A DNA stretch of 64,000 bases. It comes from a virus. Lineage: Duplodnaviria > Caudoviricetes. The DNA lies in IMG/VR virus record IMGVR_UViG_3300010346_001536, one strand, 5' to 3'. Under the pieces are notes generated by a model that searched no databases, had not been told where the DNA came from, and saw nothing but the letters and a program-made list of their open reading frames with translations. Positions within the stretch are counted from its first letter, which is position 1. Every line of letters begins with the position of its first letter. The translations under genes and the position numbers were made by a program. Of this stretch, positions 24,474-61,678 are shown piece by piece.

Positions 24474-25976
24474 TTATATTTTTAGTTGTGAAATTTTTTC
24501 AAGTAATTTTTCTTTATTAATTTTGTCAAATGTAAATCCCATTTTTCCATTTGGCATTTTGTTACCAATATATTCTTTGACGGGATTATGAATATTAAAT
24601 CTCTTTGGCGGAGTCCAGTTTTTAAATAAATATTCCATGCCTTCTATAAAAGTTTTTCCCATATTTTCAGAATTAAGCCCTCCCTCGGCACATGCCCATC
24701 TGCGGCCCTCTGCACCACAGGCCGTTCGCTTTTTGTCTCCCATGAGATACCAATACATAAACCCCTCGGCAAAGTCTTCCCATTTAGTTAGGTCATCAAA
24801 AATGTATGGGGTGGGTATTGACCCCTGTACAAGGCGTGTTACGGGCCATACAGGATATGCCCACGGACCATGTTTTTTGTAACGGCCAATGTTATTCGAA
24901 CCAAAATCCGCATCAAATTCTACGGGATTTCCGTTATCATCTAATTGTCCAATTTGGTCTTGTAATCCTCCAGTAACTGATACAATAATAGGTGTACCAC
25001 TCATAATAGATTCAGCCGCGGATAATCCAAATCCTTCGTTAGAAGAAGCATTTACCGTAATATCTGCAATATTATACATTAAATTCATATCGTCCGGAGA
25101 GAGTTTTCCCGGTGAAAAAATAATATTGTAATTAGGACAAAATGCTTCTTTAACAGCAATTAAATTAGTACCTGCATCTTGCATAATTTCTGTGTGCAAA
25201 ACAAGAGCACATTTTTCTGCTTCTTCTTTTGGCAAATTATCACAGAATTGTCGATAAGCAAGAATAATATTGCTCGTTCGTTTTCGGTGAACATTTCGAC
25301 TATTATAAAGAATTATGAATTTATAATCTTTTCCTTGTGTTAATCGTTTTCGAAATTCAATAAGAGATTCATTATTTTTTTCTAATGGTCTAAAAGTTTC
25401 TTTATTGATGCCATGCGGACAATATTGTAATAAGGTACGGCCATTCATAGGACCATCACCCACTAAACATATATTTTCTGGTCCAAGAACCCATTTGTTA
25501 ATATTAAAGGTTTGTTTACTAATGCTAAATAAAGCATCACAGCTTTCATAGAATGGCCGATTATACATTGGATAAGGAATATCATCCCAAATATTAAGAT
25601 AAGTTATTGGAATGTTAGAACGAATTTGTTTTTCTAATACATAAAGCCATCCCCAAAAGCGAGGGTCTGTAAAATGAAAAATAGCATTGGGGCGTTCTAT
25701 TGCCATAATTTGAAAAAGAATTTGCTCATTACCATAACCATCAGTAGGATATAGTTTTACATAAGCATCTGTCATTTTTTTCATTTCATTTGTAGATTGT
25801 GATAAGTCATAAGCATTTCCTTTATCAGGGTGCTTAATGGCTCCGGCAATTTGAACCCAATTAAACGTATGAACCGTGGCCAATACCAATTCTCGCATCA
25901 TCGTAGCTACTCCGGAATGCATCCGAAGGTCGTCAGCAAGAGCTAAAATAGTAGGTTTTCCATTATTTGCAGGCAT
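24474..25976 (-). CDS. glycosyltransferase family 4
   Basis: HSGVA, PHGI, RNVHRKR, NEGFGLSAAESIMSGTPII...GGLQDQ. Confidence 0.85.
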   Translation of the reverse strand: MPANNGKPTILALADDLRMHSGVATMMRELVLATVHTFNWVQIAGAIKHPDKGNAYDLSQSTNEMKKMTDAYVKLYPTDGYGNEQILFQIMAIERPNAIFHFTDPRFWGWLYVLEKQIRSNIPITYLNIWDDIPYPMYNRPFYESCDALFSISKQTFNINKWVLGPENICLVGDGPMNGRTLLQYCPHGINKETFRPLEKNNESLIEFRKRLTQGKDYKFIILYNSRNVHRKRTSNIILAYRQFCDNLPKEEAEKCALVLHTEIMQDAGTNLIAVKEAFCPNYNIIFSPGKLSPDDMNLMYNIADITVNASSNEGFGLSAAESIMSGTPIIVSVTGGLQDQIGQLDDNGNPVEFDADFGSNNIGRYKKHGPWAYPVWPVTRLVQGSIPTPYIFDDLTKWEDFAEGFMYWYLMGDKKRTACGAEGRRWACAEGGLNSENMGKTFIEGMEYLFKNWTPPKRFNIHNPVKEYIGNKMPNGKMGFTFDKINKEKLLEKISQLKI

Positions 25977-35122: not shown

Positions 35123-36220
35123 ATGAGTAATAAATTGATTCCATCAATTTTAACTATTATTCCTAAGATTCCGCTTAAAGGGGTATATTATATTGGCCAG
35201 TATGGAACAAGTGGATATGCAAATGCTGCCCGGGGGTATTTATATCATTATTTTATTAATAATATTCCTATTACATGGGACCCCCTTTATTTTGATAATT
35301 CTAAACTAAGTGATGATAATCCATACGATATAGTTGTTCAATCATTAATAAATAAATCAATTCCTCTACATGATGTTGTTATTATACATTCTACCCCCGA
35401 CTTATGGCCAAAATTTTGGGAAGAAAAACTTGAAATTTTAAAGGGAAAAGTTATTAATGGTTATTGTACTTGGGAAACAAATCGTCTTCCTAAAGAATGG
35501 GTTAAATATATGAATGAATGTGTTAATGAAGTATGGTGCCCGTCTTCTTATAATTTAAATTCATTCCGAGAATCGGGAGTAAATAATACTATACGAGTAG
35601 TACCGCATATTTTTCTTCCTCATCCTCTCCCTGACCCGATGAATGTTAAACTAGTTGATATGCGGACCGGAAATCGATTAGAAAAAAATGGATACTATAC
35701 GTTTTATACGATAGGAGAGTTTAATATACGTAAAGGAATTGAGGATACAATACGGGCTTTTTGTGAAGGATTTAAACCTACCGACCCAGTACGGCTTATA
35801 CTTAAAGTTCATTATCGTAATTATTCGGATGAAAATAAGAAAAGATGTGAAGATATGATTAAGGAAGAACTTAAAAAATATCCTTCTTATCCTCCTATTA
35901 TTTGTTTATTAGAACCGATGACTTCAACTGAGATTCTTGCCCTCCATTCAATAGGCGACTGTTACGTGTCGCTTACAAAGGCCGAGGGGTTTGGGCTTAC
36001 TATATTCGATGCCTTTAACTATGGGAAAAACATTATTGCTACGGGCTATGGTGGGCACATTGATTTTTTGGGAGATTCGTATCCCGGCCTTGTTCACTAT
36101 AAAATAGGGCCAGTGGTAGGAATGTCAACTTTTTCTTCGAACTATACTGAGGAACAGTTGTGGGCCTATCCATGTCTTGACCATGCAATTAACCTAATGA
36201 AAAAACAAGCTAACTTATGA
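35123..36220 (+). CDS. glycosyltransferase family 4
   Basis: SGYANA, TWET, RKGI, AEGFGLTIFDA...IIATGYGGHIDF. Confidence 0.88.
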   Translation: MSNKLIPSILTIIPKIPLKGVYYIGQYGTSGYANAARGYLYHYFINNIPITWDPLYFDNSKLSDDNPYDIVVQSLINKSIPLHDVVIIHSTPDLWPKFWEEKLEILKGKVINGYCTWETNRLPKEWVKYMNECVNEVWCPSSYNLNSFRESGVNNTIRVVPHIFLPHPLPDPMNVKLVDMRTGNRLEKNGYYTFYTIGEFNIRKGIEDTIRAFCEGFKPTDPVRLILKVHYRNYSDENKKRCEDMIKEELKKYPSYPPIICLLEPMTSTEILALHSIGDCYVSLTKAEGFGLTIFDAFNYGKNIIATGYGGHIDFLGDSYPGLVHYKIGPVVGMSTFSSNYTEEQLWAYPCLDHAINLMKKQANL

Positions 36221-36867
36221 CTGGAATTTTTGCATTTAATGGAAACACTAAGCATCAACAAATTATAGATACTTACATAAAGCGACTAGCAATAGATACG
36301 GTAGTCGAGTCGGGCACTTTACATGGTTTCACCACTGCGTATTTTGCCGAGCGAGTGAAGGAAGTGTACACCGTTGAAATTCAGGAAAAATCATATCGAA
36401 TGGCACGGAATTTACTCAGACAGTTTCGTAACGTTCATCAGGAACTTGGCGCTTCCCCCGCTTACTTCAATACGCTTCTGCCGACTCTTGATGGGAGAAA
36501 GATTCTGTTTTACCTTGACGCTCATTGGTTTGAGCCGTGGCCTCTGTTCGAAGAAATGAATGCCATTGCCAAGCACATCGGAAAACGGGCTGTAGTACTA
36601 ATTGACGACTTCCAGGTTCCCAACAGTCGATGTCGGTTTGACCAGTATGGCGGGGTAATAAACAATTTTGCCACATCCGAACCATACTTCAATAAGATTT
36701 ATGGGGAGCGGGGGTATGTGTATGATTATTTGGGCGGCGATGCAACACAGGAATTTATTATTAACGAATCGGAATTGGACTCCGACACTCTTCCTTTTTA
36801 TCTTCAGAGTTACAAGGGTAAGCCGATTACCATTACTGGAAAAATTATCGTCTATGCAAAAGAATAA
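36217..36867 (+). CDS. putative class I SAM-dependent methyltransferase
   Basis: VESGTLHG, TVEI, FYLDAHW, LIDDF. Confidence 0.7.
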   Translation: MTGIFAFNGNTKHQQIIDTYIKRLAIDTVVESGTLHGFTTAYFAERVKEVYTVEIQEKSYRMARNLLRQFRNVHQELGASPAYFNTLLPTLDGRKILFYLDAHWFEPWPLFEEMNAIAKHIGKRAVVLIDDFQVPNSRCRFDQYGGVINNFATSEPYFNKIYGERGYVYDYLGGDATQEFIINESELDSDTLPFYLQSYKGKPITITGKIIVYAKE

Positions 36868-37510
36868 ATATGTGTCCCAATGTGGGCAGGACAAGTGTGT
36901 CATTGAGGAAATTTACAAAGGATTGACGCATGGGTTTTTTGTTGACTTGGGAGCGGGCGATGGTATCCAATTGTCAAACACCTATGTCCTTGAAACGGAA
37001 TATGAATGGGATGGTATTTGTGTAGAACCCAACACTTATTCCTTTGAAAGCCTTAAGAAAAATCGAAAGTGTCGACTCGAAAACAGCTTCGTGCTTGATG
37101 GGGTGAGAGAAGTCGCGTTCCATCAGTACTATGGAAACCCGCCCCATTGGGAATCCTTCTCGTCAATGTATCCTTCGCCATTTCACGAAGAGATGGACGT
37201 CGTAAAGAAATCCGTTATCATGTGTAAGTCTATATCATTGGGACAGTTACTAACAAAGCATGGCGCACCGAATTTGATTCATTATCTTTCTGTGGACACC
37301 GAATATACGGACTACGAAATTCTCGAACACTTCTTCACAAAAGAACTTGGCGAAAGAGCTATCATATGTTTATCGGTGGAACACAACTTCAAGGAAGTTC
37401 GAGAGAAGCTTAGGACTTTGCTTGGAACTTATAGATTTACTTTCTATAAGGAACTGTATCAGGATGATATGTATATAAATAATGACTTTTGGAATCTTCC
37501 CAATCTATGA
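36854..37510 (+). CDS. FkbM family methyltransferase
   Basis: SQCGQD, FFVDLGAGDGIQLSNT, WDGICVEPN, IHYLSVDTE, VEHN. Start reassigned to ATG 36854. Confidence 0.85.
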   Translation: MQKNKYVSQCGQDKCVIEEIYKGLTHGFFVDLGAGDGIQLSNTYVLETEYEWDGICVEPNTYSFESLKKNRKCRLENSFVLDGVREVAFHQYYGNPPHWESFSSMYPSPFHEEMDVVKKSVIMCKSISLGQLLTKHGAPNLIHYLSVDTEYTDYEILEHFFTKELGERAIICLSVEHNFKEVREKLRTLLGTYRFTFYKELYQDDMYINNDFWNLPNL

Positions 37511-38433
37511 ACGTCCATCTCCGAATAAACTATGGGTGTGATAAACGATTCTACCTTACGAAGGACACTATCCGCCTTTGTCATCCATACTTTGAGACTA
37601 TCAGGGTTTTGGTAACGTCCGACGAATCTGACTATCAAATGTTGAAGTCGTTGGAATCGGAGTATCCGAAGCTGAAGGTCACGAAGACGGCCATTCCTTA
37701 TTACGGGGATTTTGAATCCGTGCATCGAAATCTATTGTGGGATGTCCCCGAGGACGAGTGGATTCATTTGCTAGATTCAGATGAACGTCCAACCTATCAA
37801 TTTTTGACTGGCTTGCAGGACATGATATCCGACGCCATAGCAAATGGAGTTAACACATGTCGTATTCCATCCATTTCACATTACATGAAGTCAAATGAGT
37901 TTTGTGATAAGAATTATAAGAACGCTTTTGCGGGAAAGGCTAAGTACTATGAGCCATCTTTATTTAAATACAATAGGTATAAGAACACGTACAGAAGCAG
38001 CTTTGGTGGGTGTCATTCCATGCCAGCAAGGATAGATAGGGTGGAGAAGAGATATATCTTACCAACATTACACTTCAAAAATCCTATAAATTGGTATCAG
38101 GCGTTTATCCTACAGGGGTTTTTCAATCCAACTGTTCATTCGCGGACGGAAGAGCGAGAATGTCTCATAAAGTCTTCAGAATACGCCGCGTTTGAGGCAT
38201 TGAAAAAGGAAACAAAATGTTTTGATTCAACCACATTTATATCCCAGCTGTCTATCGACCCCGAGTTCAAGCAGAAATTTCATGACCTTTTTTTAACTTT
38301 TAAGGAGTCTAAATTTCCAATTTTCCAGTTTGCATACAAATGGGTTGCTAATGAGAATTTCAGACTAATGATTTTTGAAAAGCAGGAATTCTGCGGAAAG
38401 GTCTGTTGTAAGTATGGGGATATACAATTATGA
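37507..38433 (+). CDS. GT2-like glycosyltransferase
   Basis: WIHLLDSDE (DxD); ATGA coupling on both sides. Confidence 0.6.
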   Translation: MNVHLRINYGCDKRFYLTKDTIRLCHPYFETIRVLVTSDESDYQMLKSLESEYPKLKVTKTAIPYYGDFESVHRNLLWDVPEDEWIHLLDSDERPTYQFLTGLQDMISDAIANGVNTCRIPSISHYMKSNEFCDKNYKNAFAGKAKYYEPSLFKYNRYKNTYRSSFGGCHSMPARIDRVEKRYILPTLHFKNPINWYQAFILQGFFNPTVHSRTEERECLIKSSEYAAFEALKKETKCFDSTTFISQLSIDPEFKQKFHDLFLTFKESKFPIFQFAYKWVANENFRLMIFEKQEFCGKVCCKYGDIQL

Positions 38434-39491
38434 AAATACTAATGACGTTTGAACTCGGAGCAATTGCTGTTTATGCAACGCCGCTGATAAAGTTATTGTC
38501 CTCTCGGGGGCATTCTATAGATTTTTATACAACCGACCGAAGAGGATTTTGTGACCCCGGAGACGAGATACGTAAATCTGTCACCATGCTCAATGCTCCT
38601 CCTGTAGATATGAGATATGATTTGTGGATGTATGACCTATCTACATGGGAAACAAAACAAACTCCATTTCTGGAAAAGCTTACGGAGTTCGAAGGAGACT
38701 TAGTATGCATCAATTTTGAAGATGGAAATCAATTCTTTCTTAATTATATTACGGGGTACATCATTGACAAGACAAAGCTATACATAAATAATTCTCTTTT
38801 TGTGGACCGGGGAAGATACCCCGAAAATATACGGTCTAAACTCATGTTGGCCCCGTCCTACATAACCAATAGTCAGAGTTTCAAGACATTGGTTGTTCCC
38901 TTCAGGGACAAGCAAAGGCGAGCCATATTTACAGGAAATATTACGGGAATGAGCGAAAGTGGAAATCCCGAAGAACTTAAATGTCGAATCCTTGTTCCAA
39001 TGGCGTTGATAAAGGCGGGCGTGCCTTGCTACTACCGTATCTATTCTTCCGACCCCAACTACCAGAGCGTCTTGGAAAAGGTGCCCGAGCAATATAAGAG
39101 TCAGCATCTTAAATGGGAAGACTTCTTGAAAGAAACAGTGAACAGTATGATTGTCCTCTCATTGAGGGGAAATGGTCATACAGTTCGGAGATACTTTGAG
39201 GGGCTGGCTTCGGGCGGATTGGTATTCTCCACGAGGTCAAATCATATGACTGAGTTCATTGGTCAGGGTGTAGCGGGAGAGCACTTCGTAGAAATAGACT
39301 GGTCGGGGAACGATGTGGTTGAGAAGGCCAATTACTATTTCGAGCGCACCGAGGAGGCCGAAAAAATTGCTGCTTGTGGAAGAAAGTTTTGGGAAGACAC
39401 TAGTATGTTGGATGACAATGGGGTGGTTCCTCCGAAGGTTGCGAACGAAATAATCAACAACGCCAAACGAATTGCGGGGATTGAATTTTGA
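38430..39491 (+). CDS. GT-B glycosyltransferase-like protein (GT90/CAP10-like C-terminus)
   Basis: AIFTG, LSLRGNG...RYFEGLASG, EAEKIAACGR. Confidence 0.6.
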   Translation: MKILMTFELGAIAVYATPLIKLLSSRGHSIDFYTTDRRGFCDPGDEIRKSVTMLNAPPVDMRYDLWMYDLSTWETKQTPFLEKLTEFEGDLVCINFEDGNQFFLNYITGYIIDKTKLYINNSLFVDRGRYPENIRSKLMLAPSYITNSQSFKTLVVPFRDKQRRAIFTGNITGMSESGNPEELKCRILVPMALIKAGVPCYYRIYSSDPNYQSVLEKVPEQYKSQHLKWEDFLKETVNSMIVLSLRGNGHTVRRYFEGLASGGLVFSTRSNHMTEFIGQGVAGEHFVEIDWSGNDVVEKANYYFERTEEAEKIAACGRKFWEDTSMLDDNGVVPPKVANEIINNAKRIAGIEF

Positions 39492-40213
39492 TGTTTACCA
39501 AATTCACAATCTATGGGGAAAGGTGTTCTGGCACTAACTTTTTACGCAAGGTTATTGTTGATAATTTTAACCTTGAACTAACACATCTTCCTAATGTAGA
39601 TTATGCGTGGAAACACTTTTTCGGACATGAGAAAAATCAAGCGGCCATTCAGAGTTCAACAGACGTAGTGATTTTATCAATAGTTAGAAATCCGATTGAC
39701 TATTTCGTATCTTTTTTCAAGTCGCCCCACCATCAGTCAGCGGAAAGAATTGTGGACTTTGAAACCTTTCTGACTTCGGAATTCTACTCTATAAATAAAG
39801 AAGGAGAACTTCTTACGGATAGGTATTTTGAGCAGAATTGTCGAAGGTATAAGAACATCTTCGAGATGCGTGCTGTAAAGAATCGATTTCTTGCACTTAC
39901 TATTCCAAAACTTACTGCAAATTGTTATTTAGTGCAATATGAAAGATTGAAGAATGATTCGGAAGCGGTGCTCGTTGAAATTTCAGCTAAGTTTAGGCTT
40001 ACTCCCAAGCAGCAACCATTTATTATAGAAAGACGAAGGGTTGCTCCTCGAGGGACAAGTTGGGATGTATTTGATATTGTGGATTCTCCTATAGGCGAGA
40101 ACTACGTAGTGGAATCTCCGAAATGCAAGGAAATCATCCTTTCCAATTTGGATTTTTCGGCCGAACGAATTGTTGGATACATCCGCGAATCTATTGTAAG
40201 CCGTCTAATATGA
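39488..40213 (+). CDS. sulfotransferase-like protein
   Basis: GERCSGTNFL (5'-PSB-like loop), WKH, IVRNPIDYFVS (3'-PB-like), VQYERL. Confidence 0.7.
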   Translation: MMFTKFTIYGERCSGTNFLRKVIVDNFNLELTHLPNVDYAWKHFFGHEKNQAAIQSSTDVVILSIVRNPIDYFVSFFKSPHHQSAERIVDFETFLTSEFYSINKEGELLTDRYFEQNCRRYKNIFEMRAVKNRFLALTIPKLTANCYLVQYERLKNDSEAVLVEISAKFRLTPKQQPFIIERRRVAPRGTSWDVFDIVDSPIGENYVVESPKCKEIILSNLDFSAERIVGYIRESIVSRLI

Positions 40214-41325
40214 GTGATAAAATTCAAAAAGTATATGAATTGGTTCGAGATTATGTAAATAAATCTGAATATTGCGGGAGGGTATTTATTTTTGGAGGAT
40301 ATATTAGAGACCGCATTATTGGCATTATACCTAATGATATAGATGCTATCTTAGTTGGAGATACTGAAGATGCTATGAAATTAGCAATGAAATTGGTATC
40401 GGAAACTAAAGATATGGAAACTAGAAATCTTCCCGTCAAAATTAATAATGCCATTCGTTTTTATATTAATGATGTAAGAATTGATATTACTTCTCTTCCG
40501 CCGATAGAAGGGGGAACACCCCGGGATGTTATGTGCCACGCGGCAATTTATCACCGCGATTTTGCTATCAACGGGATGTGTTTGAATTTAGAAAATGAAG
40601 AAGTTTTTGATGGGTCTGGGAGCTCTATAAAAGCCATTTTTCAAAGAAGTTTAGTAACTGCTAGAGATGATTATGATTCAATTTTTTATAATCATCCTGC
40701 TCGATTATATCGTATGTTTAGATTACAATCTAAACTTAATTTGACTATTCCGGAATCTCAAATTGAATATGCAAGATATAAGTGGTGGTTAAGTAATTTT
40801 GTCGAACGAGATAGAATTAAAATAGAATTTGACCAAATTAAACAGGGGCCAAATGCAAAAAAATTTTTAGAATTATTAAAATATGCTAAATTAGACCCAA
40901 CCGATTTATCAAGGGGCGATGTATTTATTCAAGATGGGTGGCATGAGTGTGAGCCGGGACAAGAACCAAAACGATATCGAGAAGGACTTCATACTCGATG
41001 GACCAGTCCAAAAGCAAATCTTTTAATATCCCCATCAGTAGATGCAATCGAATTAATATATTTTAAATCGGAACATGCTAAATCTGATATATTGTATTAT
41101 ACAATAAATGATAAAGAGGACAAAATTCCGCTTGGACCTACATCTGTTATCATTCCCACCGCTGGAGGGGGTCGTTTAACTATACGTACAAATACTTTTA
41201 GACCTTCAGACGTATTTGAATCTGACGATACTCGAGAATTAGGACTTTATGTATCTAAAATTAATATATTTAAATTGGGAATTAAAACTGAAATTTTAAT
41301 AGATTACATTCCATATCATTTATGA
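40210..41325 (+). CDS. class II tRNA nucleotidyltransferase/poly(A) polymerase-like domain fused to a glyco-associated module
   Basis: GGYIRD...NDID, HRDFAINGM, NHPARLYR, DRIKIE; C-terminal GWH.CE/RWT/TFRP...DTRELG module. Start reassigned to 40210 (ATGA overlap). Confidence 0.8.
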   Translation: MSDKIQKVYELVRDYVNKSEYCGRVFIFGGYIRDRIIGIIPNDIDAILVGDTEDAMKLAMKLVSETKDMETRNLPVKINNAIRFYINDVRIDITSLPPIEGGTPRDVMCHAAIYHRDFAINGMCLNLENEEVFDGSGSSIKAIFQRSLVTARDDYDSIFYNHPARLYRMFRLQSKLNLTIPESQIEYARYKWWLSNFVERDRIKIEFDQIKQGPNAKKFLELLKYAKLDPTDLSRGDVFIQDGWHECEPGQEPKRYREGLHTRWTSPKANLLISPSVDAIELIYFKSEHAKSDILYYTINDKEDKIPLGPTSVIIPTAGGGRLTIRTNTFRPSDVFESDDTRELGLYVSKINIFKLGIKTEILIDYIPYHL

Positions 41326-42575
41326 ATATAGACCATCAAGATGTTGTACTAATACGAACTGCTGATAGCCATTGGTGGAAACTCGAAGGAAATATTAAAG
41401 ATGGATTTTTTCGATGGACCGCTGAACGAGCAGATTTTCGAATTATTAATCAAAATATAAAATCAGTAGAAATTCAACTTCAATGGCATCCAACTTATTG
41501 TGGAACTATTATTATAAAACAAGATGGAAAAGAATTAATATCTTATAACCCGAATAATTTGCCAGAGCATAATATTAAAATAGATATTAAAAATCAAAAA
41601 GATTTTGAAATATATTGTAATACATTTGTACCGAATAAAGTAAATAATTCGTCCGATTTTCGGAACTTAGGAATAATGGTGAGAGGATTTGTTTTACATG
41701 TAGAGAACGAGTCGTATCAATTAAAAATGAATGACATTTCTGAATGGTTCCCTATAATAGAAATTGTCAAAGAAAAAATTTCCAATGAAGTATTAACTAT
41801 TGCACCATTTAATTATACTTCTACACCCTTTAATATTTCTACACCATTAAAACGAGGCGCAATACTTTATTTAGATAAAACTTATCCGCGAATTATAAAA
41901 CAACTTAAAGAAGATTATAAATTTAGTAAATCTTGTGAATTAATTACTTATACGGATAATTCTTCTGTAGAAGCCGATATTCATGTACCTGTATTTGAAG
42001 GACAATGGATGAAAAAATATGATTATGCTAATGTGGCAGCACAAATGGCAATACAAATTGCTCAATTCAAAGAGTGGGATTATTTTATGTGGTTGGAATG
42101 GGATTGTTACGTAGGAAAGGATTGTTGGTTTGATGTTTTATGGGAAGAATTACTAGCATGGCCATATAAGCCTATACAGGCGGGAACTCCTGTAATATCA
42201 ACTTGGCCAATAGATGGTAATTTTGAATTTATAAAACAAGATTATATTGCTTCTTATCTTAAAGCAAATAAAGCAAGTTTGCGTTCAATTTATGTTGAGT
42301 TAATGGCTATAGCAATTAACGGAGCATTTGGATTTTATGAAGTAAATATGGCAGATAAATATTTAGTAAAACAAAAAATTCCTCGTGCTTGTCCGTTTGA
42401 TTTTATGTTTGGCCTTCGTATGTTAGAGGAATACCAAGAAGATATTTTTAAACATACGGCATGGCTTCCTTCATTGTATTCGGTATATGGAAATCAATAT
42501 TATACGGAAGCCCAGCGTTTAGAAATGGTTAAGTCTGGATTCAAAGTAGCTATGCATCAGTATAAGGTAATATAA
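41322..42575 (+). CDS. shared module plus putative GT-A-like domain
   Basis: N-terminal WW.LE/RWT/TFVP...DFRNLG module; C-terminal YFMWLEWDCYV, INGAFGFY and terminal MHQYK. Confidence 0.55.
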   Translation: MNIDHQDVVLIRTADSHWWKLEGNIKDGFFRWTAERADFRIINQNIKSVEIQLQWHPTYCGTIIIKQDGKELISYNPNNLPEHNIKIDIKNQKDFEIYCNTFVPNKVNNSSDFRNLGIMVRGFVLHVENESYQLKMNDISEWFPIIEIVKEKISNEVLTIAPFNYTSTPFNISTPLKRGAILYLDKTYPRIIKQLKEDYKFSKSCELITYTDNSSVEADIHVPVFEGQWMKKYDYANVAAQMAIQIAQFKEWDYFMWLEWDCYVGKDCWFDVLWEELLAWPYKPIQAGTPVISTWPIDGNFEFIKQDYIASYLKANKASLRSIYVELMAIAINGAFGFYEVNMADKYLVKQKIPRACPFDFMFGLRMLEEYQEDIFKHTAWLPSLYSVYGNQYYTEAQRLEMVKSGFKVAMHQYKVI

Positions 42576-42649: not shown

Positions 42650-43252
42650 ATGAGAAAACATTCAATTAAAGAAAATTCATTCGATGCTGCTCCCGGTGGT
42701 GCCGCCGGGGCTATTACTTATCAAACTCCATATGGAACTCCCTTTGGCCCTAATCAGACTCAAAACCCAGACCATTTTGAGAGTGATAATATACATAAGG
42801 AGACGGAAATGTCTAAACTGGGGATTACAGATGAAGATTTAGAAGAACTTTATTCTATTTCGGGCAAAACTCCTCCTACTCCGGATGAAATTATTTCGGG
42901 CCTTCAATATGAATTAAGTCAGCAAACTAAAAAGAATCCGGAAGAAGCCAAACAACAAGTTATTGCTAATCTTCGAAAAAATACTAAATTTTATAGTGAA
43001 TTAAATCATCTTAACGTTAACGATAAAGCAATGGTAGATAATATGGATATAAAAGAACAATCTTATGAATTTAGACATCCTAATGACCCCGCTAAAAGAT
43101 TTTCAGTTAATTTAAATATAGAAGAAACGAAAAAAATTTTTAATGATATGGCCAAAGAAAAGGATAATAAATATGCCACAAATCCTCAAATTAGTGATGT
43201 GATGAAAGAAATGTGGACAGCTAAAAAGTCTCGTAAATTGTGGAAACCTTAA
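42650..43252 (+). CDS. hypothetical protein (probable late gene)
   Basis: 200 aa ORF; ATATTTATA motif upstream. Confidence 0.6.
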   Translation: MRKHSIKENSFDAAPGGAAGAITYQTPYGTPFGPNQTQNPDHFESDNIHKETEMSKLGITDEDLEELYSISGKTPPTPDEIISGLQYELSQQTKKNPEEAKQQVIANLRKNTKFYSELNHLNVNDKAMVDNMDIKEQSYEFRHPNDPAKRFSVNLNIEETKKIFNDMAKEKDNKYATNPQISDVMKEMWTAKKSRKLWKP

Positions 43253-43262
43253 AATATAATTA

Positions 43263-43874
43263 ATGCCAGCAGCAGCGTCAATACCTCCCACTTTGACAAC
43301 TGTGCCTTCGAATTTTAATGCACAGTCTTCCGGCAATGTTTCTTTTGACCATGAATATTTTTATGTAAAATATAATGGATGGAGACGATTTCCTCTCGTA
43401 CGTACTCAAAATTTATCTTTTGGATTTCCCGACCCTTCCCATGAAGGAAACATTTATACGGATAATCAATATTTTTATTTAGTTGTTAATCACCAATGGA
43501 AAAAATTTCCAATTTTTATTATAAAACCCCGCCGCCCTATTATGGGAAAAGTTCCTATGATAAATATTCAAGAAACAAAATTAACTACTTTTCCTAGTGG
43601 AACTGATAATTATGGTAGATGGGGTATGATTTCTTTTAATAATGAGTATTTTTGTATATGGGGACAAGGAAAATGGCACAAAATTCCTATAACTCGGATG
43701 CCTAAATTTCGTTCTAAAGAAGTGAAAATGAAAATTAATATGGATTCTTCACCTGAAGATACTCCAGTTGTTAATATGGAGAATCCGCCCCAAGGAAATA
43801 TTATATTGAATATTGGACTTATTTCTGAAAATCCACCCCAAGGAAATATTACATTGAATGTTGGACTTATATAA
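43263..43874 (+). CDS. repeat protein, tail fibre/decoration-like
   Basis: Three copies of an xxYFxx...W(R/K/H)(R/K)xP motif plus a C-terminal 16-aa duplication. Confidence 0.55.
   Translation: MPAAASIPPTLTTVPSNFNAQSSGNVSFDHEYFYVKYNGWRRFPLVRTQNLSFGFPDPSHEGNIYTDNQYFYLVVNHQWKKFPIFIIKPRRPIMGKVPMINIQETKLTTFPSGTDNYGRWGMISFNNEYFCIWGQGKWHKIPITRMPKFRSKEVKMKINMDSSPEDTPVVNMENPPQGNIILNIGLISENPPQGNITLNVGLI
43779..43874 (+). repeat. 48-bp tandem repeat, two copies
   Basis: Encodes ENPPQGNIILNIGLIS / ENPPQGNITLNVGLI*. Confidence 0.9.
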
Positions 43875-43877
43875 TAT

Positions 43878-44300
43878 ATGAATCCTTTATATGAAAAAGC
43901 AAAAGATTTAGTTCTTGTTAGAAGAACTTCAGATAATAAAGAATTTGAAGAGTATCCTTTATTTGTTCAACCCCAATCGGTTTTAATGACTGACCCGGCT
44001 AATAATGTTATTTGTATTAGTGCATGTTCTCTTCATGTTGCTTTTGCTGTATCTGCTTCTTATTCCGCTACTAGTTCATTTGCTTGGTATGCCTTAAGTT
44101 CTTCATATGCAAATAGTGCATCTTATGTAATAAGTTCTTCATATGCTTATAGTGCCTCATATGCTTATACCGCGTCTTATGCGCTTGAAGCCTCTTCTGC
44201 TCTTTTTGCTAATACTGCGTCTTATCTTAGATTATGGGATAATGAATTAAATAGATGGGTATATATAGAATCACATGGAGGCGTATTAAGTGTAATATAA
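43878..44300 (+). CDS. Ser/Ala-rich S(A/S)SYA-repeat protein, probably structural
   Basis: Six-residue periodicity: SASYSA TSSFAW ... SSSYAN SASYVI SSSYAY SASYAY TASYAL. Confidence 0.6.
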   Translation: MNPLYEKAKDLVLVRRTSDNKEFEEYPLFVQPQSVLMTDPANNVICISACSLHVAFAVSASYSATSSFAWYALSSSYANSASYVISSSYAYSASYAYTASYALEASSALFANTASYLRLWDNELNRWVYIESHGGVLSVI

Positions 44301-45693: not shown

Positions 45694-47820
45694 ATGGATA
45701 GAGTTCCTCGTACTTTTTGTATTACCCTTCGGGAAACACCGAAGCGTCAAGAAGCAGCCCAGAAATATTTTAAAGAAATCAACTGGCCAGTTGAATTTTT
45801 TAAAGGTATTCATGGAAAATCTTTTGGATTAAAATCAACAATTCCTAATTATAATAAACTTCCTGGGCGAGAATATTTTATAACTCAAGGGGCTATAGGG
45901 TGTTTATTATCTCATTTAATGTTATGGAATGTTTTAATTTATCAACCAGAAGATGAATTTTTAATTTTAGAAGATGATATAAAATTAGCCGATGATTTTT
46001 CAGATAGATATAAAAAATTTCGAAAAGAATTGCCCGATGATTGGCAAATAGTATATCTTGGTCATCTTATTCCGGGAGGTTTAAAAGAAAAAGGGATTAT
46101 TCATATTTCAGAAAATGTTATGGTTTGTAAGCCAATGTGTACTCATGCTTATATGGTTAAAAAATCCGCCCTTAAAACTTTAATTGAAACGAATCAATTA
46201 GCATGGAGTCCTCTTGATATTCAAATTATAGAGCGTTCATTGCCAAAATTAAAACACTATGCTGTAAAAGACCCTCTTATTACTCAGCGGTCTGTACTTA
46301 ATATTAAAGATGTGACGTGGTATTCATTATGTTATGATTGGGATTTAAATCCTGAATGGGTAACAGATAAAAGTAGCAATATAAGGTTGGGGACGGGTTG
46401 GCATCCATTAGAAAAGAATGATGAAGGATATATGATTTGGACCGATGGTCGGGGGGAATTTTTATTTGATGATAAATGGCAAAAAATGAATATTGAATTT
46501 ATTGCCGAAGGAGAAATAGAGAAAAAAATTAGAATAGTTTGTCCTCAGCAACCAGACCAGATAATTGACTTGTCAAATTATGGAAAAAATAGTATAAATG
46601 TTTCTATTCAAGGAGCCAAATCAGTTATTCTTGTTTCAGATACATTTCGACCCGTTGATATTTTTAAAACAAGTGATAGTAGAAGATTGGGAATTCGATT
46701 ATTAAAAGGAATTACTCTTACTGATTCCGAAGGAAAATCTACTTTTGTAAGTTTATATTCAATGTATGGGGCTAAAAAAGTAGATGAAATGTCTAATATT
46801 AAGGGAATTAAAATGGCTAAGATTCGTTATAGCCATGAGGATGGAAAAATTAATCTCCGAGGACAGTATTCTTATAATCATCATCGTTCAGGATGGGGAT
46901 TTGTTTTGGATTTGTTAGCCGATTATCACCGAGACGATGCACCCGTTATGGATTCTTGGATTGAAAGGACTTTTGCTTGGGACAAGATTAAAAATTCTCA
47001 GTTGCGACTCATACCCTATCGAGAACCGTGGGCTGGTATTTTTCACCACCCTCCTAACATGCCAACGTGGTTTAGTGATTTAGCTACACCTTATGCTATT
47101 ATCAATAGCCAAGAATTCCAAGATAGCTTACCAATGTGTAAAGGTCTCTATACGCTTTCAAAATATCATGCCGATTTTGTAAAATGTTTTATTAAAAATA
47201 TTCCGGTAGAAGTATTATATCATCCCACAGAAATTCCTCAAGTTAAATTTAGCTTTGAAAATTTTATTGCCAATAATAACAAAAAAGTTATTAATATTGG
47301 TTATTGGCTTCGAAAACTAACTTCCATTTATCAATTAGATATTGACCAAGGCATATATCAAAAAATACGTTTACTACCCGCCAGCTCTTGGGTACCATCA
47401 AGTACAATTGAAAGAATTTTAAATATTGAAGTCGAATTTTGTAAAAAAACATTCACTGATAATATGAAACGGTCAGTTATTGATGTGCGACATATGTCAA
47501 ATGAAGATTATGATGGACTGCTTTCTAAAAATATAGTTTTTATAGATTTATATGATGCCAGTGCAAATAATTGTATTATTGAATGTATGGTGCGCGGAAC
47601 TCCCATTCTTGTTAATCCATTACCTGCGGTAGTTGAATATCTTGGCGTTAATTATCCGTTTTATTTTTCTAATTTAGAAGAAGCGGCGAATAAACTTAGA
47701 AATTTTGAACTTATTAAAGATACAAATGAATATTTAAAGCAACCAGAAATTTTTGAGAAAGTAACGTCCGAATATTTTCTTAAAATTATACGAGAAAGTA
47801 AAATTTGGAAATCTTTATGA
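45694..47820 (+). CDS. multidomain glycosyltransferase: GT25 + shared module + GT-B-like C-terminus
   Basis: GCLLSH, LILEDD, THAYMV; internal GWH.LE/WT/TFRP...DSRRLG; C-terminal SANNCIIECMVRGTPILVNPLPAVVEYLG. Confidence 0.82.
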   Translation: MDRVPRTFCITLRETPKRQEAAQKYFKEINWPVEFFKGIHGKSFGLKSTIPNYNKLPGREYFITQGAIGCLLSHLMLWNVLIYQPEDEFLILEDDIKLADDFSDRYKKFRKELPDDWQIVYLGHLIPGGLKEKGIIHISENVMVCKPMCTHAYMVKKSALKTLIETNQLAWSPLDIQIIERSLPKLKHYAVKDPLITQRSVLNIKDVTWYSLCYDWDLNPEWVTDKSSNIRLGTGWHPLEKNDEGYMIWTDGRGEFLFDDKWQKMNIEFIAEGEIEKKIRIVCPQQPDQIIDLSNYGKNSINVSIQGAKSVILVSDTFRPVDIFKTSDSRRLGIRLLKGITLTDSEGKSTFVSLYSMYGAKKVDEMSNIKGIKMAKIRYSHEDGKINLRGQYSYNHHRSGWGFVLDLLADYHRDDAPVMDSWIERTFAWDKIKNSQLRLIPYREPWAGIFHHPPNMPTWFSDLATPYAIINSQEFQDSLPMCKGLYTLSKYHADFVKCFIKNIPVEVLYHPTEIPQVKFSFENFIANNNKKVINIGYWLRKLTSIYQLDIDQGIYQKIRLLPASSWVPSSTIERILNIEVEFCKKTFTDNMKRSVIDVRHMSNEDYDGLLSKNIVFIDLYDASANNCIIECMVRGTPILVNPLPAVVEYLGVNYPFYFSNLEEAANKLRNFELIKDTNEYLKQPEIFEKVTSEYFLKIIRESKIWKSL

Positions 47821-56177: not shown

Positions 56178-57383
56178 ATGAATATAAATGGAGAATGTGA
56201 AGTTATGAAAATATTAAGTATAGAAGAAGCAAAATCTTATGCTATGGGAAAAATCGTTGTTATTGTGACTGGAGTGACTGGTCAAGACGGAAGTTTTATG
56301 TCAGATTATTTACTGAAAAATACTTCTTATGAAATATTTGGAGGAGCTAGAAGATTAAGTGTTTCGAATCATGATAATATAAAACATTTAGAAAATGAAC
56401 CGAGATTTCATCTTATCAATTTTGATTTAACAGATGCACATTCTATTTCACAAATTGTTAGCCAACTTAAACCAGCATACTTTATTAATTTTGCAGCCCA
56501 ATCTTTTGTGAAATCTTCATGGGATTTTCCTGCTCAAACGTGGGATACTAATACTAAGTCTATTATTCATATACTTGAATCCATTCGACTTCATTGTCCA
56601 ACATGTCGATTTTATAACGCTGGAAGTTCTGAGGAATTTGGAGATGTACTTTATAATCCACAGGACGAAAAACACCCGATTCGACCTCGTAGTCCATATG
56701 GTGCTTCAAAAGCTGCAGCTAGACAATTGGTTAAAGTATATCGAGATTCCTATAGTTTATATGCAATTCAAGGATGGCTTTTTAATCACGAAGGTACACG
56801 GCGCGGCGAGGAATTTGTAACTAGGAAAATTACAAAATCTGTGGCTCGTATTGTAAAGGAATTAAAAAAAGGAACCGAAGTTGTCCCCCTCGAACTTGGA
56901 AATTTAGAAGCTAGCCGAGATTGGACAGATGCGGAGGATTGTGTGGAAGCCGTGTGGCGTATGCTTAATCAAGATATTTTTGATACATATATTGCAAATA
57001 TGATTTTAACAGATAATAAAGGAGATTATCTTACTAGTGAAACATATTTAAAGGCTATTATACCATATATTAAAGAATACGTTGTATCTTCTGGAGAAAC
57101 GCACAGTGTAAAAAGATTTGTAGAACTTGCTTTTCAAGTTGCAGGAATTGAAGGACATTGGGAAGGAAGCGGAATTGATGAGAAGTATATTTTGGGTAAA
57201 ATAAATAATTCCGGGCCTATACTTGTAAAAATTAATCCTGCTTTTTATCGTCCGGCAGAGGTGGATTATTTACGCGGAAATCCATCCCGTATTAAAAAAA
57301 GGCTGGGTTGGAGCCCTCAATCGTCTTTTAAACAACTCGTAGTAAAGATGGTTAATAAAGATATTTTAATTAATTCGAAATAA
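56178..57383 (+). CDS. gmd: GDP-mannose 4,6-dehydratase
   Basis: TGVTGQDGS, AAQSFV, SSEEFG, PRSPYGASK, FNHE...RGEEFVTRKIT, LGNL..SRDW, YRPAEV. Confidence 0.93.
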   Translation: MNINGECEVMKILSIEEAKSYAMGKIVVIVTGVTGQDGSFMSDYLLKNTSYEIFGGARRLSVSNHDNIKHLENEPRFHLINFDLTDAHSISQIVSQLKPAYFINFAAQSFVKSSWDFPAQTWDTNTKSIIHILESIRLHCPTCRFYNAGSSEEFGDVLYNPQDEKHPIRPRSPYGASKAAARQLVKVYRDSYSLYAIQGWLFNHEGTRRGEEFVTRKITKSVARIVKELKKGTEVVPLELGNLEASRDWTDAEDCVEAVWRMLNQDIFDTYIANMILTDNKGDYLTSETYLKAIIPYIKEYVVSSGETHSVKRFVELAFQVAGIEGHWEGSGIDEKYILGKINNSGPILVKINPAFYRPAEVDYLRGNPSRIKKRLGWSPQSSFKQLVVKMVNKDILINSK

Positions 57384-57415: not shown

Positions 57416-58051
57416 TTATACCTTGGGCTTCTCCAAGAAGAACTTCCAATCCTGATGTCTTGCTTTACGAATCGTATGAGAAACCAGAATTGTTTTTGGT
57501 TGAGCGGGTTTAAACAACAACTTCAATCCTACTTCGTGATTTAGTTTGTTTCCCTTTTTGTTATTGGTTTCTTTATCCGTTAATACAGTATTATCATACG
57601 TGTCCGTTCCTCCGCGACTAAGAGGAATTACGTGGTCAATGGTAGCTTCCTCAAATTCGAGGTCTTTTCCATTATAGGCATCCGTACCATTATCACGTAT
57701 AAATAACCCCTCTTTAGTGGGCTTTCCGCGAAATTTTTTCACGGGTATTTTGGAGTAATTTTTTGTTACAACAACCGTGGGAACTCGGATATGCATATGG
57801 GCCGAATGTATGCTTAAATCCCAAGGTCGAACAGGTAGTTTTATCCATTCTTCCCATGTAACGGGATTTACATATTCGTATTCATCATTAAAATTAGGAG
57901 TTCCATCTTGATTTACAGAGTAAACAATATCAATGGCTTCGATAACTCCTGTTATCAAATCACAAATTGTTTTGCTTACTAATTCGACCCCTACGGGTCT
58001 CCATAGTTTATTTAACTTGAGTACTATAGCTTTATGTGCAATATCTCTCAT
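57416..58051 (-). CDS. HNH endonuclease
   Basis: TIDHVIPLSRGG...DN...NNKKGN, with an N-terminal VLKLN...VPTVV extension. Confidence 0.85.
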   Translation of the reverse strand: MRDIAHKAIVLKLNKLWRPVGVELVSKTICDLITGVIEAIDIVYSVNQDGTPNFNDEYEYVNPVTWEEWIKLPVRPWDLSIHSAHMHIRVPTVVVTKNYSKIPVKKFRGKPTKEGLFIRDNGTDAYNGKDLEFEEATIDHVIPLSRGGTDTYDNTVLTDKETNNKKGNKLNHEVGLKLLFKPAQPKTILVSHTIRKARHQDWKFFLEKPKV

Positions 58052-58150: not shown

Positions 58151-59002
58151 TTATAAGTCTTTATAACTTCCTATTTTTAATTCTTTTCCATCCCATAAGG
58201 CCCAATGAATATCATAAAGTACATCAAGACAAATATTATGAGATAATTTCATGTTATTTAAATCAGCAAGGGATGGGTTATATGTCTCAATAGGACGATA
58301 TACTATCTCGCCCCCCCTGTGAGAGGGGGGTTTCTTTAATATACACCAATGGGGGGGCAACGACTGGGGGGTGTGCCCCACGATTTGATTAATCCCCTGG
58401 AAGGGCTTAAATTCTCTTACAAAATCGCACCATGTTATGCCGCCCACTCGATGTATCCCACCCCGGCTATAACCAGCACTAAAAACCCATGAACTTTTAT
58501 TATTGAATATATCTTGAAATCCTTTATAAATCTCGTCGTTAAGATATTCTGTTAGTTTGACAATAAATTCAGAGCGTCCTTTTTTCCAACATTTTTTAAT
58601 ATTATCAGGTAAATTTAAAGTATGAAGACCGCCATGTGATATTAACCACTGGTTATCAAGAAAATGAAACCATTTTAATTTGTTCCATAATTTGGAATCG
58701 ATGTTATCACGAATAATATAATATTTCCATTGTTCATATCCGCTACATCGAAATTTAGAATAAGAATAGGCATAATGTTGGTCGTGATTTCCAAATAAAT
58801 GAATGCGATTGGGTTTAGAAAGAGAAGATTTTAGCCAATCACAAGTATTTTTGACTTGTCCAGGAGTATCATTAAAATCATCAAAATAATCACCGAGGAA
58901 AATTATTTGGTCTGATTTCACCGACTTAATAATTTCTTCGGCTTGTTTCCATTTATGATGTAAATCCGGAATGATTAAAGTTGTTGGATTTTTATTTTTC
59001 AT
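58151..59002 (-). CDS. calcineurin-like metallophosphoesterase
   Basis: PDLH, GDYFD, GNHD, SHGG, VGHT. Confidence 0.88.
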   Translation of the reverse strand: MKNKNPTTLIIPDLHHKWKQAEEIIKSVKSDQIIFLGDYFDDFNDTPGQVKNTCDWLKSSLSKPNRIHLFGNHDQHYAYSYSKFRCSGYEQWKYYIIRDNIDSKLWNKLKWFHFLDNQWLISHGGLHTLNLPDNIKKCWKKGRSEFIVKLTEYLNDEIYKGFQDIFNNKSSWVFSAGYSRGGIHRVGGITWCDFVREFKPFQGINQIVGHTPQSLPPHWCILKKPPSHRGGEIVYRPIETYNPSLADLNNMKLSHNICLDVLYDIHWALWDGKELKIGSYKDL

Positions 59003-59074
59003 AAATATAATCAAATTATTTTTGAAAAATATTAAGTTAAAATAACAATTGTTAATTAAACATTTAGTATTTTA

Positions 59075-59449
59075 TTACGAATTAAAGGGATTTATAATTA
59101 ACGATTTATCTTTTCTTTCCCATCCTGCGGCATTCATCTCTTCTTCGGAAACGACATTGATATTTTCATGGATGGTCATAATCATTATTGTAACATTTTT
59201 TTCTCTTAGCTTAGCGGCGTGTGAGGAAAAAAGTTTGGAAAAAGTAGGCATTATTGCCATTTTTTGAAGTGGATTTTCTACATCAATATTTATGATAAGT
59301 ACTGAATTAGGCTTAATGTCATCTATGTTGACCGTAACTGCTTTAACTGTTTCTGGTGGCAAGGTTACTTCATTTGGACGGGTTTTATCTTGAGAAATTA
59401 TTTTTTCTCCTTTATCAGAAGACATTGGTTGGGATTGTTGATTTTGCAT
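59075..59449 (-). CDS. hypothetical protein
   Basis: Start reassigned to MQNQQ (59449). Confidence 0.55.
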   Translation of the reverse strand: MQNQQSQPMSSDKGEKIISQDKTRPNEVTLPPETVKAVTVNIDDIKPNSVLIINIDVENPLQKMAIMPTFSKLFSSHAAKLREKNVTIMIMTIHENINVVSEEEMNAAGWERKDKSLIINPFNS

Positions 59450-60398: not shown

Positions 60399-60409
60399 CT
60401 ATCACTTGT

Positions 60410-60438
60410 AATATACAACATCTCACTAGAATTGTCAA
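60410..60438 (-). promoter_or_regulatory. sigma70-type promoter
   Basis: Minus strand TTGACA-17 nt-TATATT. Confidence 0.7.
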
Positions 60439-60517
60439 ATGGTTTCTGGCACAAAAATTATGTTGAACAAAATCAGTTTTTTCATATTTTTAATAATTAT
60501 ATTGTTTATTTTGTAAT

Positions 60518-61664: not shown

Positions 61665-61678
61665 ATTAAAATAAAGGT

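Follow-up and report, generated by a model that had tools for sequence, protein, structure and literature searches.

The locus

Here, we describe a gene from a very large uncultured phage. The window, by which we mean the whole 64,000-nucleotide stretch that was analysed, belongs to a record of 138 kb that is only about 39% complete. The gene encodes a 371-residue protein, P0001, and sits among genes for glycosyl-, methyl- and sulfotransferases, all on the same strand:

35123-36220, + strand: glycosyltransferase of family GT4 (Pfam)
36217-36867, + strand: methyltransferase (Pfam)
about 36854-37510, + strand: FkbM methyltransferase (Pfam)
37489-38433, + strand: 314-aa ORF of no assigned function (ORF list)
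38430-39491, + strand: glycosyltransferase (GT; Pfam)
39488-40213, + strand: sulfotransferase-like gene, 241 aa (PF00685, E 0.0013, below the cut-off; ATGA overlap)
40210-41325, + strand: class II-type nucleotidyltransferase with a beta-sandwich (P0001, 371 aa; ORF, PF01743, AF2 model)
41322-42575, + strand: 417-aa partner, with a shared module (residues about 5-150) and a GT-A-fold domain (residues about 170-417; module match, AF2)
45694-47820, + strand: 708-aa GT25 protein with a third copy of the module (PF01755, E 2e-21; module, E 2e-12)

The ATG of the P0001 gene at 40210 overlaps the TGA of the sulfotransferase-like gene, and its own TGA (41323-41325) overlaps the ATG of the partner gene, giving an ATGA at each junction. 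The coupling on both sides that the sequence-only reading described is thus seen and, apart from corrections of detail given below, the gene is real as described there. An alternative, longer ORF of 400 aa begins at 40123; the 371-aa start is consistent with homologue calls and with the homologue alignment. The upstream run from 35123 to 39491 is tightly packed, with ORF ends overlapping the next starts, and its gene order recurs in the related loci L005, L023 and L024.

Both flanking genes had been assigned by resemblance. The label "sulfotransferase-like" has a weak Pfam basis in the window itself, and orthologues in L005, L020 and L023 match PF00685 clearly. The label "GT-like" for the downstream gene holds by predicted fold, and solely so: its AF2 model (pLDDT 67) matches 8snc at VIA Z 12.6, and the 104 chains at Z of at least 8 are GT-A-type without exception. 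The fold also resembles that of cytidylyltransferases (Z 9-11), and a sequence E259-W-D261-C is invariant in the family alignment. A predicted complex of P0001 with this partner scored 0.00, which amounts to no answer and is uninformative either way.

ORFs at 42650-44300 encode candidate Ser-rich virion proteins. Elsewhere in the window, a cluster of RNA ligase, kinase and phosphoesterase genes, indicative of RNA repair, lies 17 kb from the nucleotidyltransferase gene. No tRNA gene is found in the 138-kb record, and no match to the sugar nucleotidyltransferase family PF00483, in line with the earlier remark that no NDP-sugar pyrophosphorylase is visible. Since only about 39% of the genome is represented, the missing part may contain tRNA genes or another CCA enzyme. 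T4-type late promoters (TATAAATA) and sigma-70 sites are no more frequent than in shuffled sequence. A glycan on DNA was considered; searches for Tet/JBP enzymes of DNA hypermodification gave no match, and control genomes were silent too. There is a single PF00303 match (E 3.5e-87), as strong as expected for an ordinary thymidylate synthase.

A class II core that has lost its base template

P0001 matches the PolyA_pol head family PF01743 over residues 26-143 (34.9 bits, against a cut-off of 23), and its AF2 model is of high confidence (pLDDT 94.9, pTM 0.89). Three domains can be delimited:

40210-40647, + strand: head domain, residues 1-146 (Pfam, conserved carboxylates, VIA Z 18.0 to 3h37)
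40648-40893, + strand: neck domain, residues 147-228 (HMMER alignments to solved CCA enzymes, family motif table)
40915-41322, + strand: beta-sandwich module, residues about 236-371 (module alignment, all-beta in the AF2 model)

Head and neck resemble CCA enzymes in Foldseek (E 1e-12), and the best structural match, 3h37, superposes over 214 residues with an rmsd of 2.6. Motif A reads G29-G30-Y-I-R33-D34 followed by N42-D43-I-D45, so the catalytic DxD is intact, as had been noted, and so is the third carboxylate, D92. Also confirmed are motif B (H115-R116-D117-F118), motif E (E199-R-D-R-I-K-I-E206) and motif D, F159-Y-N161-H162-P-A-R165-L-Y-R168 (40684-40713), in which N161-H162 stand in place of E-D. 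In HMMER alignments to CCA enzymes of known structure, each column of FYNHPARLYR pairs with one of FLEDPLRILR and FEEDALRMLR. The cleft as a whole and the carboxylates that bind metal are preserved, and P0001 has the core of a class II (CCA/poly(A)-polymerase-type) nucleotidyltransferase, probably re-purposed.

In class II enzymes, the E and D of EDxxR read the base of CTP or ATP, and the RRD of motif B recognises the ribose. Across the P0001 family, where identities range from 26 to 43%, GGxxR(D/N), DxD and D92 are kept throughout. The E-D positions, by contrast, are occupied by NH, CF, GF, SF, RL, SY, QY, SS or TY, and the R of motif D is replaced by T in one member. Eight of 10 members have an aromatic residue in place of the D. 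The RRD of motif B, HRD in P0001, is gone in half of the family; D117 and F118 alone are nearly invariant. Outside the family, [ED]DxxRxxR is retained in 120 of about 140 class II matches, and most of the others with a recognisable motif D retain the D. EDxxR is the established amino-acid template (PMC2532741). The sequence-only reading took NHxxR to be a rewritten version of it; because family members differ freely at these two positions, we conclude instead that the template was lost. Nucleotide specificity therefore looks relaxed or read elsewhere, not rewritten. The earlier view that P0001 is not a canonical CCA enzyme holds up, given the missing E-D, the missing body and tail, and scores of 15.7-34.1 bits against NCBIfam models for CCA-adding, A-adding, CC-adding and PcnB enzymes, whose cut-offs are 290-1440.

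A C-terminal module shared with glycosyltransferases

The body and tail had been described as short. The AF2 model and structure comparison show them to be absent: the neck ends near residue 228 and is followed by a beta-sandwich, which is about 135 aa long and not ~110 aa as first estimated. In a search of the 726 ORFs of the genome, the module profile matches the 417-aa ORF (E 4e-12) and the 708-aa ORF (E 2e-12; copy at residues about 243-350, window positions about 46420-46743), bearing out the observation that the module is shared with two GT-like proteins. Its signature is W-x3-E ... RW ... F-x-P ... D-x-R-x-LG, with W244, E248, W264, F330, P332, D340, R342, L344 and G345 invariant across copies. 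The carriers comprise the GT-A partner, GT25 proteins (about 40 clusters of 700-aa GT25 proteins bear it), a GT4 enzyme in relatives and a 318-aa protein. Outside the nucleotidyltransferase family, it is seen on glyco-enzymes only.

The closest structural matches are the CBM35 module 2w46 (Z 6.7), a pectate-lyase CBM, 8x8h (Z 6.4), 2vzp (Z 6.0) and BcsB (Z 5.9). Like the P0001 module, the CBM6/CBM35-type modules (2w46, 2vzp, 2wz8), 8x8h and the carbohydrate-binding domain of BcsB (5eiy_B) are beta-sandwiches of about 120-135 residues found on carbohydrate-active enzymes. The likeness extends over 97-104 aligned residues at an identity of only 10-12%, with Z of 5.9-6.7, in the tool's middling range, and the signature is unique to the module, setting it apart from CBM families. 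In fold, the module is most like carbohydrate-binding modules, and a sugar would be a candidate ligand. Beta-sandwich folds may also bind protein or nucleic acid. The module belongs to no Pfam family, with no match even at E up to 10 in searches with 10 copies; an identity with DUF7024 (phosphoglycerol transferase I), suggested by an Atlas feature score of 0.83, was unconfirmed in the same searches.

Distribution, gene context and selection

The P0001 family is rare, comprising about 11 lineages confined to phage-like contigs, and forms one clade (support 100/100). A tblastn search of 50,697 phage records with P0001 gave no match. Pattern scans, which need conserved peptides and can miss members, found no relative in 185,579 species genomes and added only two loci from metagenomes and three from IMG/VR. 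Among the long class II matches that we checked, the additional domains are HD, CBS-DHH or GNAT, with none of a glyco type, and P0014 and P0015 are tandem canonical-type proteins. We found no description of the P0001 architecture in the literature.

In 8 of the 11 lineages, the nucleotidyltransferase gene directly precedes a module-bearing GT-A partner, usually beside a sulfotransferase, which adjoins in five contexts. This order is seen in the window, L005, L008, L018/19, L020/21, L022, L023, L024 and the P0009 contig. Viewed from the other side, the nucleotidyltransferase gene lies upstream in all seven cases in which the context of a partner-family member can be read. Partner-linked members occur in both subclades of the family tree, on which the linkage to glycan genes looks ancestral. 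The remaining three lineages have neither the partner nor glycan neighbours; in one, the P0004 type, the nucleotidyltransferase gene is flanked by RNase H and a DnaB-type helicase, with gp32 and UvsX also in the neighbourhood. In three IMG/VR fragments (10-12% complete), the module is present in the nucleotidyltransferase only. Of the features that the sequence-only reading singled out, fusion to the glyco-associated module is retained in every family member and glycan linkage in the 8 lineages, whereas NHxxR, being variable, does not travel with them. Nor is the gene decaying, for which dN/dS near 1 would be the sign: values of 0.057 and 0.22 indicate purifying selection.

Proposed role and alternatives

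We lean, with somewhat less than even confidence, towards P0001 being a transferase that uses nucleotides and that a jumbo phage has recruited for tailoring glycans in the cytoplasm, and not a tRNA CCA enzyme. A CBM-like beta-sandwich stands where the tRNA-binding body would be, and the gene is usually coupled translationally to that of a module-bearing GT-A enzyme amid glycosyl-, methyl- and sulfotransferase genes. The module may target the nucleotidyltransferase and the glycosyltransferases to one common polymer or scaffold. This target could be a glycan that is built in the cytoplasm during infection and carried by a virion protein, a lipid or possibly DNA. By analogy with sugar-directed enzymes, P0001 would use a nucleotide donor to place a nucleotidyl or phospho-linked group onto a hydroxyl of the glycan or glycoconjugate. 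The earlier suggestion of a different nucleotide or a non-tRNA acceptor fares well insofar as the enzyme is non-canonical and linked to glycan genes in 8 of 11 lineages, and falls insofar as it invoked a new NH template. Several observations weigh against a glycan acceptor: the likeness to CBMs is middling (Z 6-7), three lineages lack the partner and the P0004 type lies among nucleic-acid enzymes, the neck is kept with motif E and the three arginines of motif D, and an RNA repair cluster is 17 kb away.

Alternatively, P0001 may still be an RNA 3′-end nucleotidyltransferase that tails or repairs RNA and is less strict in its choice of nucleotide. The beta-sandwich would then take the place of body and tail in gripping RNA or protein, and the glycan genes nearby would reflect shared expression or a shared scaffold, not shared chemistry. 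RNA is the substrate of every known class II enzyme, and the preserved head, neck, motif E and RxxRxxR of motif D, the P0004-type context and the RNA ligase/kinase/phosphoesterase cluster inside the window are all in keeping with such an activity. When EDxxR of E. coli PAP is changed to alanine, random incorporation of A, C and U results and activity is not lost (PMC2532741). CCA enzymes that serve in tRNA repair are, moreover, frequent in jumbo phages (PMC7824862). Nevertheless, we consider an RNA substrate unlikely, though a serious contender: the body and tail are absent and PF12627 is undetected, none of 11 contexts places the gene beside an RNA ligase or tRNA genes, no tRNA gene occurs in 138 kb, the module is elsewhere on glyco-enzymes only, and coupling to the GT-A enzyme is maintained in 8 lineages. 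Isoelectric point and net charge are uninformative on RNA binding, as canonical class II enzymes span pI 5.4-9.4 and the family falls within this range.

It was also suggested from the sequence that P0001 might activate a sugar. On this reading, it would make an NDP-sugar or other nucleotide-activated donor for the neighbouring transferases, starting for example from a sugar phosphate, an alcohol phosphate or a sulfate. The absence of PF00483 from 138 kb, the need of the nearby sulfotransferases and glycosyltransferases for activated donors, and the relaxed base pocket are compatible with this idea, which we nonetheless regard as improbable. A polymer-binding-like module that is common to at least three transferases and has no evident use for a soluble substrate is a poor match for the activation of a free sugar. 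In Pol-beta-fold enzymes, the nucleophile is normally a hydroxyl and not a phosphate. In addition, common NDP-sugars come from the host, the record is incomplete, and the likeness of the partner to cytidylyltransferases means that an activation role may already be filled. A structural role, in which the nucleotidyltransferase fold serves as an inactive nucleotide-binding or scaffold piece of a glycosylation complex, would account for the unconserved motif B arginines and template, and the shared module could then serve in assembly. Such a role seems very improbable, as members that are only 26-43% identical still have all three catalytic carboxylates and the GG-R-D loop, and selection is strongly purifying.

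The glycan-tailoring role that we favour can be taken a step further, to a more tentative proposal built on analogy: that the family is the first class II lineage to have moved off RNA, using its CBM-like module to place a nucleotide or phospho-group onto a phage glycan together with the GT-A partner and sulfotransferases. If so, it would yield sulfated glycans that bear nucleotides or phosphodiesters, carried on the jumbo-phage virion or another cytoplasmic carrier. A new enzymatic step would then be added to glycan tailoring in jumbo phages, which is little known, and the module would be a new mobile domain marking their glyco-enzymes. Should P0001 prove to be an RNA enzyme instead, it would represent a minimal terminal transferase that is relaxed in its specificity and has an unusual handle for its substrate, and that, too, would be useful. 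In either case, a family that keeps its catalytic core under strong selection while dropping the base template and the tRNA handle, and that gains a glycosylation targeting module, offers a concrete, testable case of the class II fold in new use. With few members, compact proteins of about 370 aa and a confident model, the family is easy to test.

Comparison with known systems

Class II nucleotidyltransferases are the textbook case of template-free, protein-templated RNA synthesis. Their neck holds the RNA 3′ end, and their body and tail bind the acceptor/T arm of tRNA. To our knowledge, all characterised members act on RNA 3′ ends and none on anything else. Like the tRNA nucleotidyltransferases and poly(A) polymerase of this class (3h37 and 5hc9 from Thermotoga, 1miv from Geobacillus, the A-adding 4wby from Aquifex, 6qy6 from Planococcus and E. 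coli PAP, 3aql), P0001 has the head and neck fold (Z 14-18, rmsd 2.6-3.5, about 215 residues), with DxD, the third carboxylate, D-F of motif B, RxxRxxR of motif D and motif E in common. Unlike them, it lacks the helical body and tail: structural alignments to CCA enzymes stop at about residue 245, PF13735 and PF12627 are undetected in Pfam searches, and residues 236-371 are all-beta in the AF2 model. Its gene also lies in a glycan operon, away from tRNA and RNA repair genes.

The fold of P0001 is Pol-beta and not the GT-A-like fold of PF00483 sugar-1-phosphate nucleotidylyltransferases. PF01743 is its sole Pfam match at E ≤0.01, the LicD family PF04991 giving none, and PADLOC anti-phage models (CBASS, MenT-like and others) likewise have no match at E ≤0.01. 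The head fold is shared with sugar-directed Pol-beta-fold enzymes, namely ANT(2″) (4xje, Z 9.8), LinB (3jyy, Z 8.4) and LnuA (4wh5, Z 6.7). ANT and Lnu enzymes nucleotidylate sugar hydroxyls; LicD, fukutin and FKRP use CDP-alcohols as donors of the phospho-alcohols that they transfer. They differ from P0001 in having no class II neck and no specific sequence relationship to it. The likeness is mechanistic only, and in this sense ANT/Lnu and LicD/fukutin/FKRP are the nearest functional analogues of the reaction proposed here.

Fold and motifs of the nucleotidyltransferase

The gene of P0001 overlaps both neighbours, its ATG with the upstream TGA and its TGA with the downstream ATG, in keeping with the ATGA coupling described in the sequence-only reading. 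It is the last of eight end-to-start overlapping genes in a run that starts at 35123. It and the two other genes that encode its C-terminal module are as follows.

40210-41325 (+): P0001 ORF, 371 residues
41322-42575 (+): partner, a 417-aa ORF; module copy at residues 36-147 (E 4e-12)
45694-47820 (+): 708-aa GT25 protein; module copy at residues 243-350 (E 2e-12)

Residues 26-143 of P0001 match the PolyA_pol head of Pfam (34.9 bits, cut-off 23), PHROGs labels the protein a tRNA nucleotidyltransferase (E 3e-16), and residues 25-228 align to solved CCA-adding enzymes (E 2e-7 to 2e-5). All the motifs listed from the sequence are present, each where it had been placed, and FYNHPARLYR aligns exactly with FLEDPLRILR and FEEDALRMLR of the solved enzymes. 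For those enzymes it is established that EDxxR serves as the amino-acid template for choosing CTP and ATP (PMC2532741).

An AlphaFold2 model from a 30-row alignment (mean pLDDT 94.9, pTM 0.89) superposes over residues 1-~245 on class II CCA-adding, A-adding and poly(A) polymerase structures (Foldseek E ~1e-12; VIA Z 18.0 to 3h37, rmsd 2.6 over 214 residues, 17.7 to 1miv and 17.6 to 4wby). Beyond the neck the model has neither helical body nor tail. The short body and tail proposed earlier are thus missing, and the module proposed to follow them is there, residues ~236-371 forming a beta-sandwich. Its best PDB matches are carbohydrate-binding modules and similar folds (CBM35 2w46, Z 6.7; 8x8h, 6.4; 2vzp, 6.0; 2wz8, 5.9; BcsB, 5.9), at values in the tool's "middling" range, so that only the fold class is supported.

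A module shared with glyco-enzymes

Searching the genome with a C-terminal profile returned two more module copies, those of the partner and the GT25 protein, which bears out the earlier claim of a module shared with two glycosyltransferase-like proteins. Ten aligned copies have W, E, W, F-x-P and D-x-R-x-LG in common, and Pfam holds no family for the module. In a large protein database the carriers are ~40 clusters of ~700-aa GT25 proteins, the 417-aa family and the nucleotidyltransferase family; every identified carrier other than the nucleotidyltransferase is a glyco-enzyme. Two further carriers, on the related contig L008, bring the total to five enzyme types.

L008 4412-5968 (+): 518-aa GT4 enzyme, module N-terminal
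L008 13148-14104 (-): 318-aa protein of no assigned family, module internal

A family that has lost the base template

Exhaustive HMMER searching of 1.84 billion representatives returned eight full-length clusters with the P0001 architecture (E 1e-34 to 1e-248), followed by two tandem multi-domain proteins and then, from E 2e-11, ordinary class II enzymes. Counting loci recovered through the partner, the family spans ~11 lineages, all carried on phage-like metagenomic contigs; a pattern scan of 185,579 species genomes found no member. In a tree rooted with canonical enzymes it is monophyletic (100/100), sits on a long branch and splits into two subclades, both well supported.

Every family member conserves the GG-x-x-R-(D/N) loop, the DxD and the third aspartate; of motif B D-F alone is retained. 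At the E/D positions of motif D the members have NH, CF, GF, SF, RL, SY, QY, SS or TY, and in one of them T replaces the templating R, whereas [ED]DxxRxxR is kept in 120 of ~140 non-family class II hits and most others with a recognisable motif D retain the D. The template is therefore lost, not "rewritten" as first proposed, since no new conserved one has taken its place.

Purifying selection acts on the gene. Two orthologues that are 89% identical give a dN/dS of 0.057 (dS 1.16), and the window gene and a 99% identical copy, with few changes between them, give 0.22; neither is near the value of 1 that decay would give.

Linkage to the partner

Directly 3' of the nucleotidyltransferase, mostly with overlapping stop and start, lies a 408-430-aa protein with an N-terminal module. 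This order is seen in the window, L005, L008, L018/19, L020/21, L023 and L024, as well as in L022, where the partial partner ORF matches the module at E 2e-14, and probably on the P0009 contig. Conversely, a nucleotidyltransferase lies upstream in 7/7 partner-family members with readable context. Partner residues 170-417 are predicted to adopt a GT-A fold (pLDDT 67): hyaluronan synthase matches at Z 12.6, 104 chains reach Z >= 8, and sugar and alcohol-phosphate cytidylyltransferases, also of GT-A fold, match at Z 9-11. The partner's E-W-D-C motif is invariant.

A sulfotransferase adjoins in five contexts, and the syntenic cluster also holds FkbM and other methyltransferases and GT4, GT25 and GT32-like genes. 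The partner is missing in three lineages: the P0004 type, whose gene is flanked by RNase H and a DnaB-type helicase, beside gp32, UvsX and RNR, and P0006 and P0007, which have neighbours of other kinds. Because partner-linked members occur in both subclades, the linkage looks ancestral, lost or moved at least twice. Of the features expected to co-occur, the fusion is conserved family-wide and the GT-A link holds in most lineages, failing in the three without a partner; NHxxR varies.

The phage and other features

The window covers positions 32010-96009 of a single 138,305-bp virus record (G+C 33%), whose estimated completeness of ~39% (CheckV) implies a jumbo phage with a genome of about 350 kb. 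The phage has a family B DNA polymerase that shares 41% identity with its counterpart in Microcystis phage Mel-JY01; its other similarities are to polymerases of T4-like cyanophages. The record has only one PF01743 gene, and ARAGORN found no tRNA genes in the window or the whole 138-kb record (~39% complete). The contig begins, outside the window, with GGGAGCACC-like repeats and ends in a C-rich run; both look more like breaks in the assembly than genuine genome ends.

19308-20156 (-): weak match to the RXYLT1 C-terminal domain (E 8e-5, below cut-off)
20178-20990 and 24474-25976: further GT genes, among which the ORF with the weak RXYLT1 match lies
36217-40213: two methyltransferases, a 314-aa ORF without assigned function, a GT and a sulfotransferase-like gene
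43263-43874 and 43878-44300 (+): small ORFs between the partner and GT25 genes
56178-57383 (+): GDP-mannose 4,6-dehydratase (E 4e-101)
57416-58051: HNH nuclease, after the RNA repair set
58151-62014 (-): RNA repair set of calcineurin-like phosphoesterase, AAA_33 kinase, cREC_REC receiver, RNA ligase and PHA02142 OB-fold protein; no nucleotidyltransferase among them
62145-62792 (+): 215-aa ORF, Endonuclease VII N-terminal and dCMP deaminase domains
L024 10765-12351: IS605-type TnpB and Y1 transposase genes, inserted between the partner and GT25 genes of this related phage contig
L001/L002 13933-19164: ribonucleotide reductase large subunit, 1743 aa, two inteins with LAGLIDADG homing endonuclease domains

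In the dystroglycan pathway RXYLT1 acts as the ribitol xylosyltransferase. The dehydratase indicates that the phage remodels GDP-sugars itself. In the five genes at 36217-40213 G+C is 38-43% and GC3 31-47%; for the flanking genes, the nucleotidyltransferase included, the values are 31-35% and 19-25%, and the switch coincides with the nucleotidyltransferase start codon. This composition suggests a more recently acquired cassette. One of the small ORFs contains an extended repeat of (S/T)ASY type, and the other ends in a duplicated ENPPQGNI(I/T)LN(I/V)GLI segment; both are possible glycosylation targets.

Possible functions

P0001 retains an intact-looking Pol-beta-type core of class II descent, under selection; its tRNA handle and base template are lost, its fusion to a glycosyltransferase-associated module is conserved, and its gene recurs in operons with those of a GT-A enzyme and sulfotransferases. 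Enzymes of the ANT, Lnu and LicD/FKRP types, which share the broad fold of this core, transfer nucleotidyl or phospho-linked groups onto sugars. Our preferred reading, held tentatively, is that the shared module would direct its carrier enzymes to one polymer and that P0001 may transfer a nucleotidyl or phospho-linked group onto a glycan hydroxyl. The glycan may be carried by a virion protein, a lipid or DNA. DNA stays a candidate because of what adjoins the glycan cluster: the clamp loader immediately upstream in the window and L008, a DNA methyltransferase after the partner in L005 and L023, and in L020 a short methyltransferase-like ORF two genes further on.

The main rival, which we consider rather doubtful, is a terminal RNA transferase of relaxed specificity. 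To our knowledge all known class II nucleotidyltransferases act on RNA, P0001 retains the neck, genes of the P0004 type have a nucleic-acid context, and an RNA repair cluster lies 17 kb away. Activation of a small molecule is improbable, given a polymer-binding-like module shared with other enzymes, and the conserved carboxylates and purifying selection make a dead scaffold very unlikely. To a function outside the glycan, RNA, small-molecule and scaffold readings we assign a slim chance.

Comparison with known enzymes

We found no description of the P0001 architecture in the literature, and P0001 matched none of the defence models. Like CCA-adding, A-adding, CC-adding and PcnB enzymes, it belongs to the PF01743 superfamily; unlike them, it has no template, RRD, body or tail and falls below the family cut-offs.
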